64,000 bases of DNA. Source: a virus. Below, one piece after another: positions 53,280 through 58,753 of this stretch. The stretch is from positions 34,742 to 98,741 of the IMG/VR virus record IMGVR_UViG_3300032268_001383. One strand, given 5' to 3'. The notes below the pieces were generated by a model. That model did no database searches. It saw only the letters and a list, made by a program, of their open reading frames with translations, and was not told the origin of the DNA. The position numbers were made by a program, and so were the translations under genes. Within the stretch, counting starts at the first letter, position 1; each line of letters starts with the position of its first letter.

Positions 53280-54026
53280 TCAAGAGCCACAAGATTCGCA
53301 ACCATCAGGTCCTGAATCTAAGCTACACTGGATTTCTGCCATTTTTTGTTCTTCAGTTTTAGTTTCTTGAACTGTAAACTTAACAGCATCTGCAGCCGAT
53401 TTAGTTCTTAAATAATACATACCAGTTTTTAGATTGTATCTTCTATCTCTATAAAATTTAGGATTACCTTCTTTATCACAAACAACTTGGTAGTTTTCAT
53501 CATTTTCCGGAATAATTAATTTTCCAGCTGAATCAGTCAGGAAAGTACGTTTACCCCAACCATAGAAGTGCATAGACGTTAATTTACCAAAATTAACATT
53601 ATCCATAAATATGTTCATTGATTGAGTTTGATCGATAAAGGCACCTCTATCTGCAGCCAATTCAATAACGTCCTTTTGTTTAACTTCCCATACAGTCTTG
53701 AAAATCTCTTTCAAATGAGTTGGAATTTCCGGTATATTTTGAACTGAACCATTCTGTTGAATAATTTTATTCTTAACTGATTCATTCCAAATACCAAGTT
53801 TAACTAATTCTTTTACCAAATACTTATTTACAATAATAAACTCACCAGAAATTACTCTTCTTAAATATAAATTTGATGTCTGTGCTTCACAAGATGCTTC
53901 ATTACCGAGTATTGATGCTGTATTATGTGAGACACATCCATTTTCTAAAAGATATTCATGTGCTTCATTAACTTCGATATCCCAAGTTGGTTTTAGACCA
54001 GATTTACTTATTTTTTTTACTTTCAT
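53280..54026 (-). CDS. nrdA: NrdA fragment 3: split-intein-2 C-half (35 aa) fused to the NrdA C-terminus
   Basis: MKVKKI...TWDIEV...NGCVSHN|TASILGN; then DQTQSMN, KTGMYYLR and C-terminal CESC. Confidence 0.93.
   Translation of the reverse strand: MKVKKISKSGLKPTWDIEVNEAHEYLLENGCVSHNTASILGNEASCEAQTSNLYLRRVISGEFIIVNKYLVKELVKLGIWNESVKNKIIQQNGSVQNIPEIPTHLKEIFKTVWEVKQKDVIELAADRGAFIDQTQSMNIFMDNVNFGKLTSMHFYGWGKRTFLTDSAGKLIIPENDENYQVVCDKEGNPKFYRDRRYNLKTGMYYLRTKSAADAVKFTVQETKTEEQKMAEIQCSLDSGPDGCESCGS
53922..54026 (-). mobile_element. split intein 2, C-terminal half
   Basis: Block F (WDIEV) and block G (SHN) followed by Thr+1. Confidence 0.9.
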
Positions 54027-54038
54027 ATTTGTTTATAT

Positions 54039-55646
54039 TTATTTTTTTATATTTAAAATTTTATATTTAGTCATTCCAACTCCATATATTTTATAAAACC
54101 CCATTTCTTTCATTATTTCAGATTCGGATTTATTATTTTTTTCGGGATATAAGACTGATAATTTTTTCTTTGAATAGTTAAACCTATGTTTTCTATTTTT
54201 ACTAACTACCCACCAATAATTTGGTTTTGTTTTATGACAAAATTCAAATCCTATCTTCTCATAGGTACCACCCTTGAATATTGAGTTGTCAACATATGTT
54301 ATTATCTCATTATAATCTTTGTTTTTAAGGAAAAAATTTAATAGTCTACTAGCCGATCCAACAACAATACTATTGAGTTTATTACAGAACCTTACTAACT
54401 CCATATCTTTTCTCTTTTTAGAAAAACACATAAGTGAAACTAGCTCATCATTATATATTAATCCTATTTTATATTTAGAATTTGTATAACCTTGTATGTG
54501 ATTTTTTGTTAAGAAGTTCCTAACTATTTTATTATCTTCTATAAATTTTACCTGACATTTTCTTGCAAAAATTTTATTTTCAACTAAATTCAATTTTGTT
54601 AAAATGATAGATTTTACAATTTCTCTTTTTGTTTCCCAGTCATCTTCCCATATATAAATCAAATCTATATCCATTTTTTTCAACTCAATCATTTTATTTA
54701 AATGATAATTTCTATCTTTGAATTTATCACTATGCCAAAATAGTCCATTACATTCAATTGCTAATTTTAAATCCGGTAAATAAATATCAATTTCTCTTTT
54801 ATTTTTATATTTAAAATTAGTAATACGCTCACCATCATAATTATCACAAATAAAATTATATATTTGTCTTTCGAAATTAGATGATGAATTATTATATGGA
54901 TCATTACATAAAGTACAAATCTCCTGATCATTATTATATCTATAGTAGAGTAAATTTGTATCAATTTCAAATGTATCTTTGCATTTAGAGCAATTACAAT
55001 AGTTTAGGTATCCTTCTTTTTTGATAAATTCTAAATCTGCATATTTATTAATTATATTAGAAAGTATACTATCTTTAAATTTGGACACAAAATCTTTTTT
55101 TTGAGAAGGATAATCAACTCCATACCTATTCTGGTTTGTTTTAACTATTTTTTCCTTAATTATATTATTTTTTGCAACATTGTCGAATCCCCAATTAGAA
55201 ATGTTTGTTTTCCTTCTCTTATCAATAGAATCTTTAGTTTTACTTCCTTTTATGGCTAATTCATTAACACCGTCCATTTTTAATGAATTATCCACTCCAT
55301 ATTTTTGTAACATTGTTTTCCTATATTTAGAATAAACATTTATATTTTGTGACGGATATTTAACTCCAAGTTTGGATAAATTTGTTTGTTCGCTTTTACT
55401 TAAAGCGCATTTAGATGAACACGCATAATAATTATACTTACTTATATTAGAAATATATGACTTGTATTGTATACTTTTTTCACATCCACAAACATCACAT
55501 TTACACATAACAAGGACATGGCTATTTTTTGATAAATCTGATATATCTATTTCTATTTCATCACCTACTTTTATATTATAGTAATTTGATAATTTCTTAT
55601 AATTATTAGGATTTACTCTAATAATAACCTTGTCTTGCATTAACAT
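54039..55646 (-). CDS. free-standing putative homing endonuclease (PD-(D/E)XK/Vsr-like, Hef-like) inside fractured nrdA
   Basis: CxxC modules, KYGV repeats, EIDIYLPDLKLAIECNGLFWHS...IWEDDW, KIFARKC; lies between the halves of intein 2. Confidence 0.8.
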   Translation of the reverse strand: MLMQDKVIIRVNPNNYKKLSNYYNIKVGDEIEIDISDLSKNSHVLVMCKCDVCGCEKSIQYKSYISNISKYNYYACSSKCALSKSEQTNLSKLGVKYPSQNINVYSKYRKTMLQKYGVDNSLKMDGVNELAIKGSKTKDSIDKRRKTNISNWGFDNVAKNNIIKEKIVKTNQNRYGVDYPSQKKDFVSKFKDSILSNIINKYADLEFIKKEGYLNYCNCSKCKDTFEIDTNLLYYRYNNDQEICTLCNDPYNNSSSNFERQIYNFICDNYDGERITNFKYKNKREIDIYLPDLKLAIECNGLFWHSDKFKDRNYHLNKMIELKKMDIDLIYIWEDDWETKREIVKSIILTKLNLVENKIFARKCQVKFIEDNKIVRNFLTKNHIQGYTNSKYKIGLIYNDELVSLMCFSKKRKDMELVRFCNKLNSIVVGSASRLLNFFLKNKDYNEIITYVDNSIFKGGTYEKIGFEFCHKTKPNYWWVVSKNRKHRFNYSKKKLSVLYPEKNNKSESEIMKEMGFYKIYGVGMTKYKILNIKK

Positions 55647-55664
55647 AATAAATATTTTTTTTAT

Positions 55665-56003
55665 TTAATGTTGAACTATATCATCATTTTCTTCTAATTC
55701 ATCAGCTCTTACCCAAATTTCTTCATTATTTCTATTTACTAAAAATTGGTGATTTTCTGAGCAAGTGAATATAGTACCATCTTCCATTTCAATATCCAAT
55801 GTTTCAACCAAACCATTATAGAAAATTTTTTCTGATTTCTTAATGCCAAATCTAGTCTTAACATATAATGGTTCTTTAAATACTATCCAACCTTGTTCAC
55901 TTGTTTTTTCAATTTCTCTCCAATCTATTAACATTTCGTCCATAATTTGTTGATATGATTTATTACCTTCTAATGTCTGAATAATAGTTGATGATACTTG
56001 ACA
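55665..56003 (-). mobile_element. split intein 2, N-terminal half (112 aa)
   Basis: MPTAS|CQVSSTIIQT block A; CSENHQFL block B; WVRADELEENDDI then stop. Confidence 0.9.
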
Positions 56004-57321: not shown

Positions 57322-57516
57322 ACCACCACCGTTATGAACCATTCCCAAACCTTCAACAATATAATTGTGTTGGTTTTCAACTTCTAGGTCATAAACTTCA
57401 ATATCTTGTTGATTTTCAATTTCAATATCACTAACTGTATTGAAATTCAAATTTTCAATTAGTAGATTCAAATCTACCGGGTCTTCTATGTATCCTGTCG
57501 GATTGTCTGTAATCAT
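57322..57516 (-). CDS. nrdA: NrdA fragment 2, exon 1: split-intein-1 C-half (62 aa) plus GGG
   Basis: VYDLEVENQHNYIVEGLGMVHN|GGG; own ATG preceded by an A-rich leader. Confidence 0.88.
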
Positions 57517-57547
57517 ATTTTTAATTTTTTTTTGTTTTTATTTAGAA

Positions 57548-57880
57548 TTAATATTTCAAAATTTTATCTCCTTTCAAAAGTTCTTTTGCTGCAATCCATT
57601 CTATCTGATAGACACCATTTTTAATACCTTTTATAATATTTTCTCTTGAAATATCACTCGATAAATTTCTAATAACTAATATTTGATGTTCGCCAGTAAC
57701 TTTATTGATACCGGATTCCGTTTTGATTACAATTATATCTTCTGATTTTTTATTGAAAGTTTTCTTTTTTGTAACTTTATTAAATGTTCCATCAGAAGTC
57801 AGAACTTCGTCACCTTCGTTGATGACATCAATATTGATTGTACCATTTTTAGTGATTACTTTACTATCTTTTGTAAAACA
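57548..57880 (-). mobile_element. split intein 1, N-terminal half (110 aa)
   Basis: AVDQ|CFTKDSKVIT block A, GDEVLTSDG, VTGEHQIL block B, WIAAKELLKGDKI then stop. Confidence 0.9.
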
Positions 57881-58753
57881 TTGATCTACCGCTCTTGCAG
57901 TTTCATTGTAGATTTTAAGAAAAGGAATAATACCATTTGATGAACCATTTGTACCGGCAATATAGGTATTTTTTGCTCTAACTTTATTGAAAGAAATACC
58001 AATTCCACCTGCGTTTTTAGAGATTTGTGCGGCTTCTTTCAAAGTATTAAAAATGCCCTCTATAGAATCCGATTCTACATCAAGGAGAAAACAACTTGAT
58101 AATTGTGGTCTATTAGTACCAGAATTAAATAGAGTTGGAGTAGCATGTGTATAATAGCTTTCAGAAAGAAGGTTATAAGTTTCTAAAGCTTTTTCAATAT
58201 TTTCTCCCCAAATTTGTAGAGCAGTACGCATATACATATATTGAGGTCTTTCTGCAACCTGCCCATTTAATTTTAGTAAGTAACTCCTCTCTAACACTTT
58301 GTATCCAAAATAATCAAAATTGTGGTCTCTTGAATGTACGATTGCTGAATTCAACTGGTCAGCATGTTTTTTAACTAAGTCAAAAAACTTGAGTGAAACA
58401 ACTGGTGAATGTTTTCTTGTATTTGGATCCACATAGTTATACAAGTCTGTAACTGTTTCACTAAAACTTTTATTAGTTTCTTTGTGCAGAGCCGTAATAG
58501 CTAATCTAGCAGCTAAGGTTGCGTAATCGGGATGTTTGGTTGTTAAAGCGGCGGCTGTTTCCATGGCTAACTGATCCAATATCCTTGTTTGTATATCTGG
58601 CGTAATTCCCTCAATTACTTTCTGAGCTACTTCAAATGGTTGTACCCATTTTAAATCTAGTCCATAAGTTTGTTGGTTGATTCTCTCTAATACTTTATCC
58701 AACATCACTGGCTCCTTTTTTCCATTTCTTTTTGTTACTTTTATGTTTATCAT
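57548..58753 (-). CDS. nrdA: NrdA fragment 1: ATP cone and N-terminal RNR alpha fused to the N-half of intein 1
   Basis: VTKRNG ATP cone, ERPQ, ATPTLFNSG, QLSSCFL, AGGIG, NGIIPFLK. Confidence 0.95.
   Translation of the reverse strand: MINIKVTKRNGKKEPVMLDKVLERINQQTYGLDLKWVQPFEVAQKVIEGITPDIQTRILDQLAMETAAALTTKHPDYATLAARLAITALHKETNKSFSETVTDLYNYVDPNTRKHSPVVSLKFFDLVKKHADQLNSAIVHSRDHNFDYFGYKVLERSYLLKLNGQVAERPQYMYMRTALQIWGENIEKALETYNLLSESYYTHATPTLFNSGTNRPQLSSCFLLDVESDSIEGIFNTLKEAAQISKNAGGIGISFNKVRAKNTYIAGTNGSSNGIIPFLKIYNETARAVDQCFTKDSKVITKNGTINIDVINEGDEVLTSDGTFNKVTKKKTFNKKSEDIIVIKTESGINKVTGEHQILVIRNLSSDISRENIIKGIKNGVYQIEWIAAKELLKGDKILKY

Follow-up and report, generated by a model that had tools for sequence, protein, structure and literature searches.

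A huge-phage ribonucleotide reductase gene in three pieces, with two different split inteins and a group I intron: a predicted route to one enzyme

How could one enzyme be obtained from a gene that is broken into several open reading frames (ORFs)? The question is raised by nrdA, the gene for the alpha subunit of class Ia ribonucleotide reductase (RNR), in a 64,000-nt stretch of viral DNA (IMG/VR record IMGVR_UViG_3300032268_001383, positions 34,742 to 98,741); the whole stretch is referred to here as the window, and positions are those of the window. A sequence-only reading had proposed that the protein is encoded as three separate polypeptides joined through two different split inteins, and that this is a natural three-piece protein trans-splicing system. 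Here we describe the locus together with its relatives. The three pieces and the two inteins are present, one of the two junctions has every sequence feature of canonical trans-splicing, and the other carries a glycine at the position where a class 1 intein has its nucleophile. We consider it an evenly balanced proposition that this nrdA is functional in pieces, with a group I intron that self-splices, a second intein that trans-splices by the class 1 pathway, and a first intein that ligates in the manner of bacterial intein-like (BIL) domains.

The locus is formed by five ORFs arranged head to tail on the minus strand, from 58753 to 53280. Along this strand the elements are NrdA residues 1-291 followed by the N-terminal half of intein 1 (IntN1), a 31-nt spacer, the C-terminal half of intein 1 (IntC1) followed by Gly-Gly-Gly, a 289-nt group I intron, the NrdA core from KRKGS to MPTAS followed by the N-terminal half of intein 2 (IntN2), an endonuclease gene, and the C-terminal half of intein 2 (IntC2) followed by Thr and the remainder of NrdA to its C-terminus. 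Fragment 1 (58753-57548, 401 aa) passes from ..AVDQ into CFTKDS..KILKY and stops; a 66-aa ORF (57516-57316) carries the end of IntC1, ..GMVHN, and stops after GGGK; fragment 2, taken as an ORF (57035-55665), runs from MKRKGS through MPTAS into CQVSS..IVQH before its stop; and fragment 3 (54026-53280) starts with MKVKK, completes its intein half at CVSHN and continues with TASILG to CESCGS. The ORFs that flank the 31-nt spacer are in different frames, and three stops separate the halves of intein 1. The three separately encoded polypeptides of the sequence-only reading were confirmed in their coordinates, stops and junctions.

When the exteins are joined conceptually, 291 + 346 + 213 residues give an NrdA of 850 aa. 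Aligned with uninterrupted nrdA genes, this product gives a single high-scoring segment pair in 97 fetched loci, at identities of up to 84% and with nothing missing or added at the joints; the N-extein of fragment 1, considered separately, is 84-88% identical to intact orthologues. The intact genes read VDQGGGKRKGS (ARAVDQGGGKRKGS) and MPTASTASILG at the sites of the two joints, the same junctions that were said to be restored and that conceptual joining does restore. The alignment had been set beforehand as a check, and the match runs from end to end with the conserved blocks kept. The claim that the catalytic residues are spread over all three pieces also holds. In Pfam, the barrel is divided into positions 1-72, 75-395 and 392-515 on fragments 1, 2 and 3, respectively. 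The product has the features of class Ia RNR alpha, namely the ATP-cone, the barrel, the catalytic Cys/Asn/Cys/Glu, the YY pair and the C-terminal CxxC (Table 1).

Table 1. Elements of the split nrdA locus, in the order in which they lie on the minus strand
Feature	Position in the window	Strand	Description	Domain or family match
N-extein of fragment 1	57881..58753	-	NrdA residues 1-291; ATP-cone, all-alpha domain, barrel start, SSCF Cys, end ..ARAVDQ	PF03477, PF00317, PF02867 positions 1-72
IntN1	57548..57880	-	110 aa + TAA stop; Cys1 (CFTKDS), block B VTGEH	Pfam Hint_2, Hint
Spacer between fragment 1 and IntC1	57517..57547	-	31 nt, A-rich, without endonuclease gene	
IntC1	57331..57516	-	62 aa; blocks F/G VYDLEVENQHNYIV..GMVHN	Pfam Intein_splicing 117-155
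Exon 1 tail	57322..57330	-	GGT GGT GGT (Gly-Gly-Gly); opens with Gly+1 of intein 1, closes with the U of the 5' splice site	
Group I intron	57033..57321	-	289 nt, ORF-less; starts AAATAG, ends ..AAAATG	RF00028
Core extein of fragment 2	56004..57032	-	KRKGS...MPTAS, 343 aa; NLCSE and VCNL	PF02867 positions 75-395, E 1e-122
IntN2	55665..56003	-	112 aa + stop; Cys1 (CQVSS), block B CSENH	
Homing endonuclease gene	54039..55646	-	free-standing, 535 aa, between the halves of intein 2; spacers of 18 nt before and 12 nt after	
IntC2	53922..54026	-	35 aa; basic N-terminus (MKVKKISKSGLK), end CVSHN	
C-extein of fragment 3	53280..53921	-	TASILG..., 213 aa + stop; YY pair, terminal CESCGS	PF02867 positions 392-515

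The NrdA of these huge phages (the product of the window and that of an intact orthologue, L003:5119-7686) is strikingly eukaryote-like and has a C-terminal CxxC tail; the intact orthologue aligns to human RRM1 with 1044 bits, and an insertion of ~29 aa relative to the human protein lies between the NLC finger loop and VCNL. The motif VDQGG(N/G)KR, which we take from eukaryotic R1 structures to be specificity loop 2, places intein 1 inside that loop. In RNR, the allosteric signal for specificity is conveyed by loop 2, and a break of the chain at this point should come at a price.

Intein 2 has all the sequence features of a class 1 split intein: Cys1, the block B motif CSENH, a terminal His-Asn, and Thr at position +1. 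Cys1 was found in every listed IntN2 homologue, and SHN followed by Thr in 32 of 32 IntC2 homologues. In a related locus, L001, the same element is an uninterrupted mini-intein of 152 aa, 80% and 77% identical to the IntN2 and IntC2 of the window, within which the MKVKK that starts the window IntC2 is found as an internal IKVKK; this contiguous form matches the DnaE and RadA inteins in PDB over both parts, distantly (E ~1e-3). The two halves are, on the basis of the L001 form and its PDB matches, parts of one HINT domain, and from the uninterrupted element of L001 it follows that intein 2 was split when the endonuclease gene inserted. The 535-aa endonuclease belongs to PHROG 3339 (homing endonuclease, E 5e-103), it matches DUF7487 and the Vsr-type fold REase_MTES_1575 in Pfam, and it carries the motif ECNGLFWHS. 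Junction 2 is thus organized as in the so-called fractured genes, with the halves on separate ORFs, an endonuclease gene between them, all on the same strand and with short spacers. Having every sequence feature of the class, intein 2 is considered a class 1 split intein, putatively active in trans. Pfam Hint and intein models, a check proposed for the four intein halves in the sequence-only reading, matched three of the halves and gave no match to one.

Between IntC1 and the core, a narrow scan identified the intron with 68.3 bits against RF00028 (gathering score 50, E 2e-17), whereas an Rfam scan of the whole 7-kb region gave no match. The 5' exon (GGUGGUGGU) pairs with an internal guide (GCUUCCAC) and has a U.G wobble at its last base; this wobble in P1 is kept in 4 of 4 introns, and the terminal base of the intron is G. 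Among the homologous introns of the window, L001, L020 and L089, 74 predicted pairs are kept, 24 of them with compensatory changes. Splicing of 57322 to 57032 gives ..VHN GGG KRKGS.. in frame. For an unspliced RNA, the AAA-TAG at the start of the intron is an in-frame stop, and in the window, L001 and L020 the ATG at its end shares the frame of KRKGS. With CTG at the end of the L089 intron, an alternative start at the intron end is not conserved, and in L089 the expression of the core would need RNA splicing; L124 also lacks an ATG at this place. The structure is that of a group I intron, and from it we infer that the element self-splices. Alternative 5' splice sites that could create a nucleophile at position +1 of intein 1 were considered and rejected, as every U in GGUGGUGGU still leaves Gly.

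Intein 1 has Cys1 (VDQ/CFT), the block B motif TxxH (VTGEH) and a terminal His-Asn (MVHN). Over 94 unique IntN1 sequences, 40-98% identical to that of the window, residues C1, T62 and H65 are conserved in at least 97%, and the terminal His-Asn is invariant in the homologues of IntC1 as well as in those of IntC2. The +1 codon in the window is GGT (Gly), where the class 1 pathway has Cys, Ser or Thr, and Gly+1 was found in every relative with a VDQ/GGG host protein, split or contiguous. Because of this Gly, canonical transesterification is excluded at junction 1, the branched intermediate cannot form, and intein 1 was not filed as a canonical class 1 intein. The natural three-piece trans-splicing system that had been claimed therefore stands for the three pieces and for the class 1 features of junction 2; at junction 1, Gly+1 bars trans-splicing of the canonical kind. 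Contiguous inteins at the same site in VNQ-SG hosts (L155, L161, L166, L168) have Ser+1 (VNQ/C..LVHN/SGKRKGS), and for this reason we regard the loop 2 site as a regular intein site and the Gly lineage as one without the nucleophile. These Ser+1 inteins come from other large viruses, contigs of giant-virus metagenome-assembled genomes (MAGs) among them.

The halves of intein 1 in L001, unlike those of the window, share a reading frame, with just one TAA and 7 codons between them (L001:2889-2912). Read through this TAA, they were modelled by AlphaFold2 as one HINT domain, with a predicted local distance difference test score (pLDDT) of 87.3, a predicted template modelling score of 0.81 and low values for the linker alone; this model was obtained with a 47-row alignment, single-sequence input giving a pLDDT of 37. 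Foldseek relates it, with a probability of 1.00, to mini-inteins (Ssp DnaB, gp41-1) and to BIL domains (6y75, 2lwy). The architecture of intein 1 is that of a type A BIL domain, i.e. a HINT domain with an N-terminal Cys, a C-terminal His-Asn and no +1 nucleophile; its context is a different one, a conserved loop 2 of NrdA, where its contiguous relatives bear a LAGLIDADG endonuclease (L024, L025, L027). Intein 1 is thus BIL-like in mechanism at most, and not a member of the BIL domains. The gap between its halves is 24-31 nt in the window and L001 and from ~125 nt to 1 kb in L020, L089 and L092, with a free-standing endonuclease-like ORF in that of L089; the L001 gap looks like one that collapsed recently after loss of an endonuclease gene. 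Joining of the window halves by readthrough or frameshifting was discarded, as a change of frame and three stops separate them. HINT C-terminal blocks were also observed repeatedly in P0222, a non-RNR protein of 1819 aa, each followed by poly-Gly (..KVHN/GGGGG..); this protein is possibly a BIL-like array related to IntC1.

After removal of the intron, the middle chain is IntC1-core-IntN2, of 520 aa. The claim that this piece has a C-intein and an N-intein at its opposite ends finds direct support in P0216, a relative that encodes IntC1-core-IntN2 as a single ORF, and the two inteins are indeed different: their N-halves have no detectable similarity (E 1.7), and their C-halves share the generic F/G blocks only (8 of 22 residues). 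The net charges are +4 for IntN1, -14 for IntC1, -12 for IntN2 and 0 for IntC2, a pattern also found in L092, and the first dozen residues of IntC2 have a net charge of +5, opposite to the acidic tail of IntN2. IntC1 and IntN2, which lie on the same chain, are both strongly acidic, and hence the two ends of the middle chain should repel each other; the surface that each would meet on its own partner is neutral to basic. With unrelated N-halves and this distribution of charge, the mutual orthogonality that the earlier reading demanded of the two pairs is plausible.

The broken gene is found in many other assemblies. With the last 152 residues of fragment 1 as query, 214 protein clusters were obtained, and among the 120 matches listed at least 118 clusters end at the same stop (..DK[IV][LV]KY, ~397-404 aa); these clusters come from JGI, ENA, Logan and NCBI assemblies, with contigs of up to 629 kb, and a fragment 1 identical to that of the window is present in three other assemblies (JGI, ENA, Logan; contigs of up to 346 kb). 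Proteins formed by IntC2 and the C-terminus (~248 aa) make up at least 32 clusters. Proteins of the fragment 2 type include those that run from MKRKGS to IntN2 (456-475 aa), from intron alleles like the window; IntC1-core-IntN2 in one ORF without intron (P0216 and P0270, 492-498 aa); the whole N-part with IntN2 (~748 aa), in which junction 2 is the single break; and proteins of 350 aa, in ~25 clusters, with the C-half of a third split intein, inserted at NL/C, at the N-terminus and IntN2 at the end. Window-type three-piece sets are probably present on contigs of 115224, 13269, 47880 and 17891 bp, to judge from clusters whose longest contigs agree in length, a procedure validated on the 9,936-bp contig that is L092. 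A metagenome scan with the IntN2 alignment, which used narrow peptide patterns, returned 2 loci; few complete additional loci were gained, and the survey relies on protein clusters.

Direct sequence of L092 and of the L020 family revealed genes in four pieces, with three split inteins (VDQ/GGG, SNL/C, MPTAS/T) and the intron. These four-piece loci span L092:2694-8919, on an IMG/VR contig, and L020:1571-9047; L092 has a GIY-YIG-like ORF in its second gap and a 205-aa ORF inside the intron. Other loci are split at junction 1 and NL/C (L124-L126), and single splits occur at each of the three sites (L089, L086, L131; L095-L098; L127-L128). In P0219 (1273 aa), a start formed by IntC1 is followed by three contiguous inteins (NL/C, V/CNL, MPTAS/T), which makes four inteins in one nrdA. 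The three-piece arrangement is not rare; it is common in huge-phage metagenomes. The proportions of nonsynonymous (pN) and synonymous (pS) differences from L001 are 0.25/0.67 for IntN1 and 0.22/0.61, 0.13/0.70 and 0.10/0.50 for the other halves; against L001 and L092, pN is far below pS in all four halves, with ratios of 0.05-0.21, and the exteins have a dN/dS (ratio of nonsynonymous to synonymous substitution rates) of ~0.04-0.12, these ratios being rough because synonymous sites are saturated.

These observations are consistent with a class Ia nrdA of eukaryote-like sequence that is still functional in a huge tailed phage and into which selfish elements would have inserted at three sites close to one another. 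The five ORFs are probably co-transcribed, because they lie head to tail on one strand and no terminator-like site was found between fragments 1 and 3. Self-excision of the intron would then fuse IntC1-GGG to KRKGS... and create the middle chain, and translation would supply NrdA(1-291)-IntN1, IntC1-core-IntN2 and IntC2-C-terminus. IntN2 and IntC2 would associate and, by class 1 protein trans-splicing, join MPTAS to TASILG, while IntN1 and IntC1 would form a second, unrelated HINT domain inside loop 2 (VDQ/GGG). There, Cys1 would provide a thioester, cyclization of the Asn would free the alpha-amine of Gly, and attack of this amine on the thioester would ligate the chains. The non-homology of the inteins and their charges would prevent cyclization of the middle chain and mispairing of the outer ones. 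Given that the catalytic residues are kept and that a loop 2 left permanently nicked would be expected to carry a cost, ligation by the type A BIL route is rated the most likely outcome at junction 1, with a confidence that reaches even at best. The fuller claim, that intein 1 represents a large, naturally split lineage that ligates an essential enzyme without a +1 nucleophile, by means of the Gly alpha-amine on the Cys1 thioester and in tandem with a canonical split intein, is held tentatively.

Several points weigh against this reading. Gly+1 rules out the canonical pathway at junction 1, and given the Ser+1 relatives at the same site, the Gly lineage may simply have lost ligation. RNA splicing, protein splicing and RNR activity are all predictions from sequence, the orthogonality of the pairs is deduced from sequence and charge, and the ratios that suggest selection are, as said, rough. 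The gene nrdB was not found in the 98.7-kb record, and since ~18% of the predicted genome is covered by this record, a further RNR may be encoded outside it. The competing account that has to be taken most seriously, although we find it doubtful, is that ligation does not occur at junction 1: intein 2 would splice fragments 2 and 3, IntN1 and IntC1 would bring fragment 1 to them and then either stay on as a clamp or cleave themselves off, and the enzyme would work as two non-covalently associated chains nicked in loop 2, in the manner of NrdA-a and NrdA-b of phage Aeh1. A pure clamp needs none of the residues (C1, block B Thr/His, His-Asn) that are nearly invariant over the 94 unique sequences, contiguous Gly+1 inteins with an endonuclease persist in loop 2 (L024, L025, L027, P0221, P0226), and the expected cost of a nick there also speaks against it. 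The account draws strength from the Gly found in every VDQ/GGG host, from the loss of a nucleophile that the Ser+1 relatives suggest, and from the split forms being especially common in the Gly lineage. Furthermore, canonical inteins without a +1 nucleophile cleave and BIL domains mostly do so (PMC4031507), and a split NrdA can work unligated (PMC3045599).

The remaining alternatives are less probable. If the intron were inactive or often left unspliced, the core would start at the ATG that ends the intron, IntC1-GGGK would be a free peptide of 66 aa, and four polypeptides would result, with intein 1 joining nothing. The in-frame AAA-TAG and ..ATG of the window, L001 and L020 suit this idea, and gene callers do report MKRKGS-type proteins; we nonetheless consider it improbable, in view of the RF00028 score above the gathering value, the helices kept by compensatory changes, the CTG of L089 and the missing ATG of L124, the intron-less relatives in which IntC1 is fused to the core (P0216, P0219, L086), and the purifying selection on IntC1. 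Ordinary class 1 trans-splicing at both junctions, which could be expected from the Cys1, block B His and terminal His-Asn of each pair, is very improbable with a GGT after the Asn of IntC1, no Cys, Ser or Thr in GGGKRKG, and Gly left by the alternative 5' splice sites. Equally slight is the probability that the locus is a decaying pseudogene, full of selfish elements and yielding no functional enzyme: for nrdA genes of Campylobacter phages, degeneration under intein load has been suggested (PMC3653736), and the missing nrdB would agree with decay, whereas the low dN/dS of the exteins, the presence of all catalytic residues, the end-to-end match to intact genes and a layout kept in many diverged lineages contradict it. 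Finally, an assembly or sequencing error inside a cis-intein, the refutation envisaged from the start, has a negligible probability. In L001, the in-frame halves with a single TAA between them would be compatible with such an error, and for the window nothing was found in its favour; its halves are out of frame with three stops, the same fragment 1 was assembled at JGI, ENA and Logan, and its stop is shared by at least 118 clusters from independent assemblies.

Phage genes broken by split inteins are known. Fractured genes, including the loci NrdA-1 to NrdA-7, were described by Dassa, London, Stoddard, Schueler-Furman and Pietrokovski in 2009 (PMC2677866); in these, a phage gene of DNA metabolism is broken by a split intein, and an independent endonuclease gene of Vsr-like or GIY-YIG type separates the two halves, on one strand and with short spacers. 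Junction 2 is exactly of this kind, and complementary charges between intein halves were also remarked on in that work. Those loci, known from short metagenomic reads, have one break each, and the NrdA break lies just before the thiyl-radical Cys (PMC2677866), at the NL/C site that is split in the four-piece relatives. In contrast, the nrdA of the window has two breaks at other sites (loop 2, VDQ/GGG, and MPTAS/T), one gap without an endonuclease gene, a group I intron 9 nt past intein 1, and one intein without a +1 nucleophile. Engineered tandem trans-splicing (Pinto et al. 2020, PMC7090010; Humberg et al. 2025, PMC12707363) likewise uses three segments, a middle IntC-X-IntN and two pairs that do not cross-react; the inteins of those systems come from unrelated sources and were combined artificially, whereas in the window both pairs occur naturally within a single gene and would have to work together in every infection.

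For junction 1, the closest precedent is the type A BIL domain, in which ligation proceeds through a thioester, Asn cyclization and attack by the freed alpha-amine, with cleavage products dominating (Mills, Johnson and Perler 2014, PMC4031507); this is the only documented ligation by a HINT domain without a +1 nucleophile (PMC4031507). Such ligation has been demonstrated, also in trans with an artificially split BIL domain (Amitai 2003, Dassa 2004 and Aranko 2013, as reviewed in PMC4031507; PDB 2lwy). Intein 1 shares with these domains the HINT fold, the N-terminal Cys, the C-terminal His-Asn and the lack of a +1 nucleophile. Type A BIL domains belong to bacterial proteins that are variable and often secreted, and no homing endonuclease accompanies them; in contrast, intein 1 has a fixed position within a conserved loop of NrdA, an essential enzyme, LAGLIDADG-bearing and Ser+1 relatives occur at that site, and the intein is naturally split. 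In phage Aeh1, nrdA-a/mobE/nrdA-b (Crona et al. 2010, PMC3045599) also places NrdA pieces around a mobile endonuclease gene and yields an active enzyme from separate chains; the Aeh1 system has no intein and two pieces instead of three, which assemble non-covalently through short tails. The coincidence of intron and intein was reported for nrdE of Bacillus phage SPbeta (Lazarevic et al. 1998, as summarized in PMC3653736), in which the intein is contiguous and a single polypeptide results. Single fractured genes, split inteins, the coincidence of intron and intein in RNR genes, engineered tandem trans-splicing and BIL ligation are therefore already published. In a literature search with subscription journals mostly outside its reach, we found no natural protein whose three or more chains are put together by at least two split inteins, in agreement with the earlier reading, and no true intein with Gly+1.

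The 98.7-kb contig is rated 18% complete, which implies a genome of ~550 kb. Its PHROG matches include a tail-fibre protein, a virion protein and a DnaB helicase, and no second nrdA is present in the record. A giant eukaryotic virus was considered as the source in view of the eukaryote-like NrdA, relatives among giant-virus MAGs (GVMAG) and the ~550-kb genome, and was rejected on the tail-fibre, virion and DnaB matches together with a huge-phage relative; searches for RNA polymerase and for the capsid of nucleocytoplasmic large DNA viruses were negative or uninformative. That relative is LR756504.1, an uncultured phage of 636 kb. It was the one GenBank record retrieved with IntN1 as a protein query, and it contains the intron and a split intein 1 without intein 2; a megablast search of the locus against GenBank phages gave no match. 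A scan for sigma-70 promoters gave no enrichment (48 found, 45.7 expected). Directly downstream of nrdA, in the region 51166-53279, there is a TROVE/Ro60-like gene (PHROG 850, RNA-binding protein, E 4e-42); between the two genes there is an ORF-free stretch of ~670 nt, which includes a strong terminator-like hairpin at 52673-52642. Elsewhere in the window, the very large ORFs 11387-18151 (2254 aa), 28948-34602 (1884 aa) and 35595-38306 (903 aa) have no Pfam match at E 0.001, and a 600-aa ORF (39985-41787) contains ankyrin repeats.

The assembly of one protein from three or more segments by orthogonal split inteins has so far been described as an engineering scheme only; here such a scheme would be run naturally and repeatedly on an essential enzyme, in three- and four-piece versions, in many lineages of huge phages, with intein pairs that would already have been selected to work side by side without cross-reaction. 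The intact genes, the contiguous and mini-inteins, and the forms split with and without an endonuclease gene constitute an evolutionary series of gene breakage, and the Gly+1 (VDQ-GGG) and Ser+1 (VNQ-SG) lineages are well suited to study how a +1 nucleophile is lost or replaced. The Gly+1 joint poses the testable question of whether a true intein can ligate without a side-chain nucleophile. If it can, intein 1 would be a further mechanistic kind of true intein, useful for near-traceless ligation, and these phages would offer a co-evolved orthogonal pair, or a triple in the four-piece relatives, for multi-segment ligation in which one member would leave only Gly at the joint.

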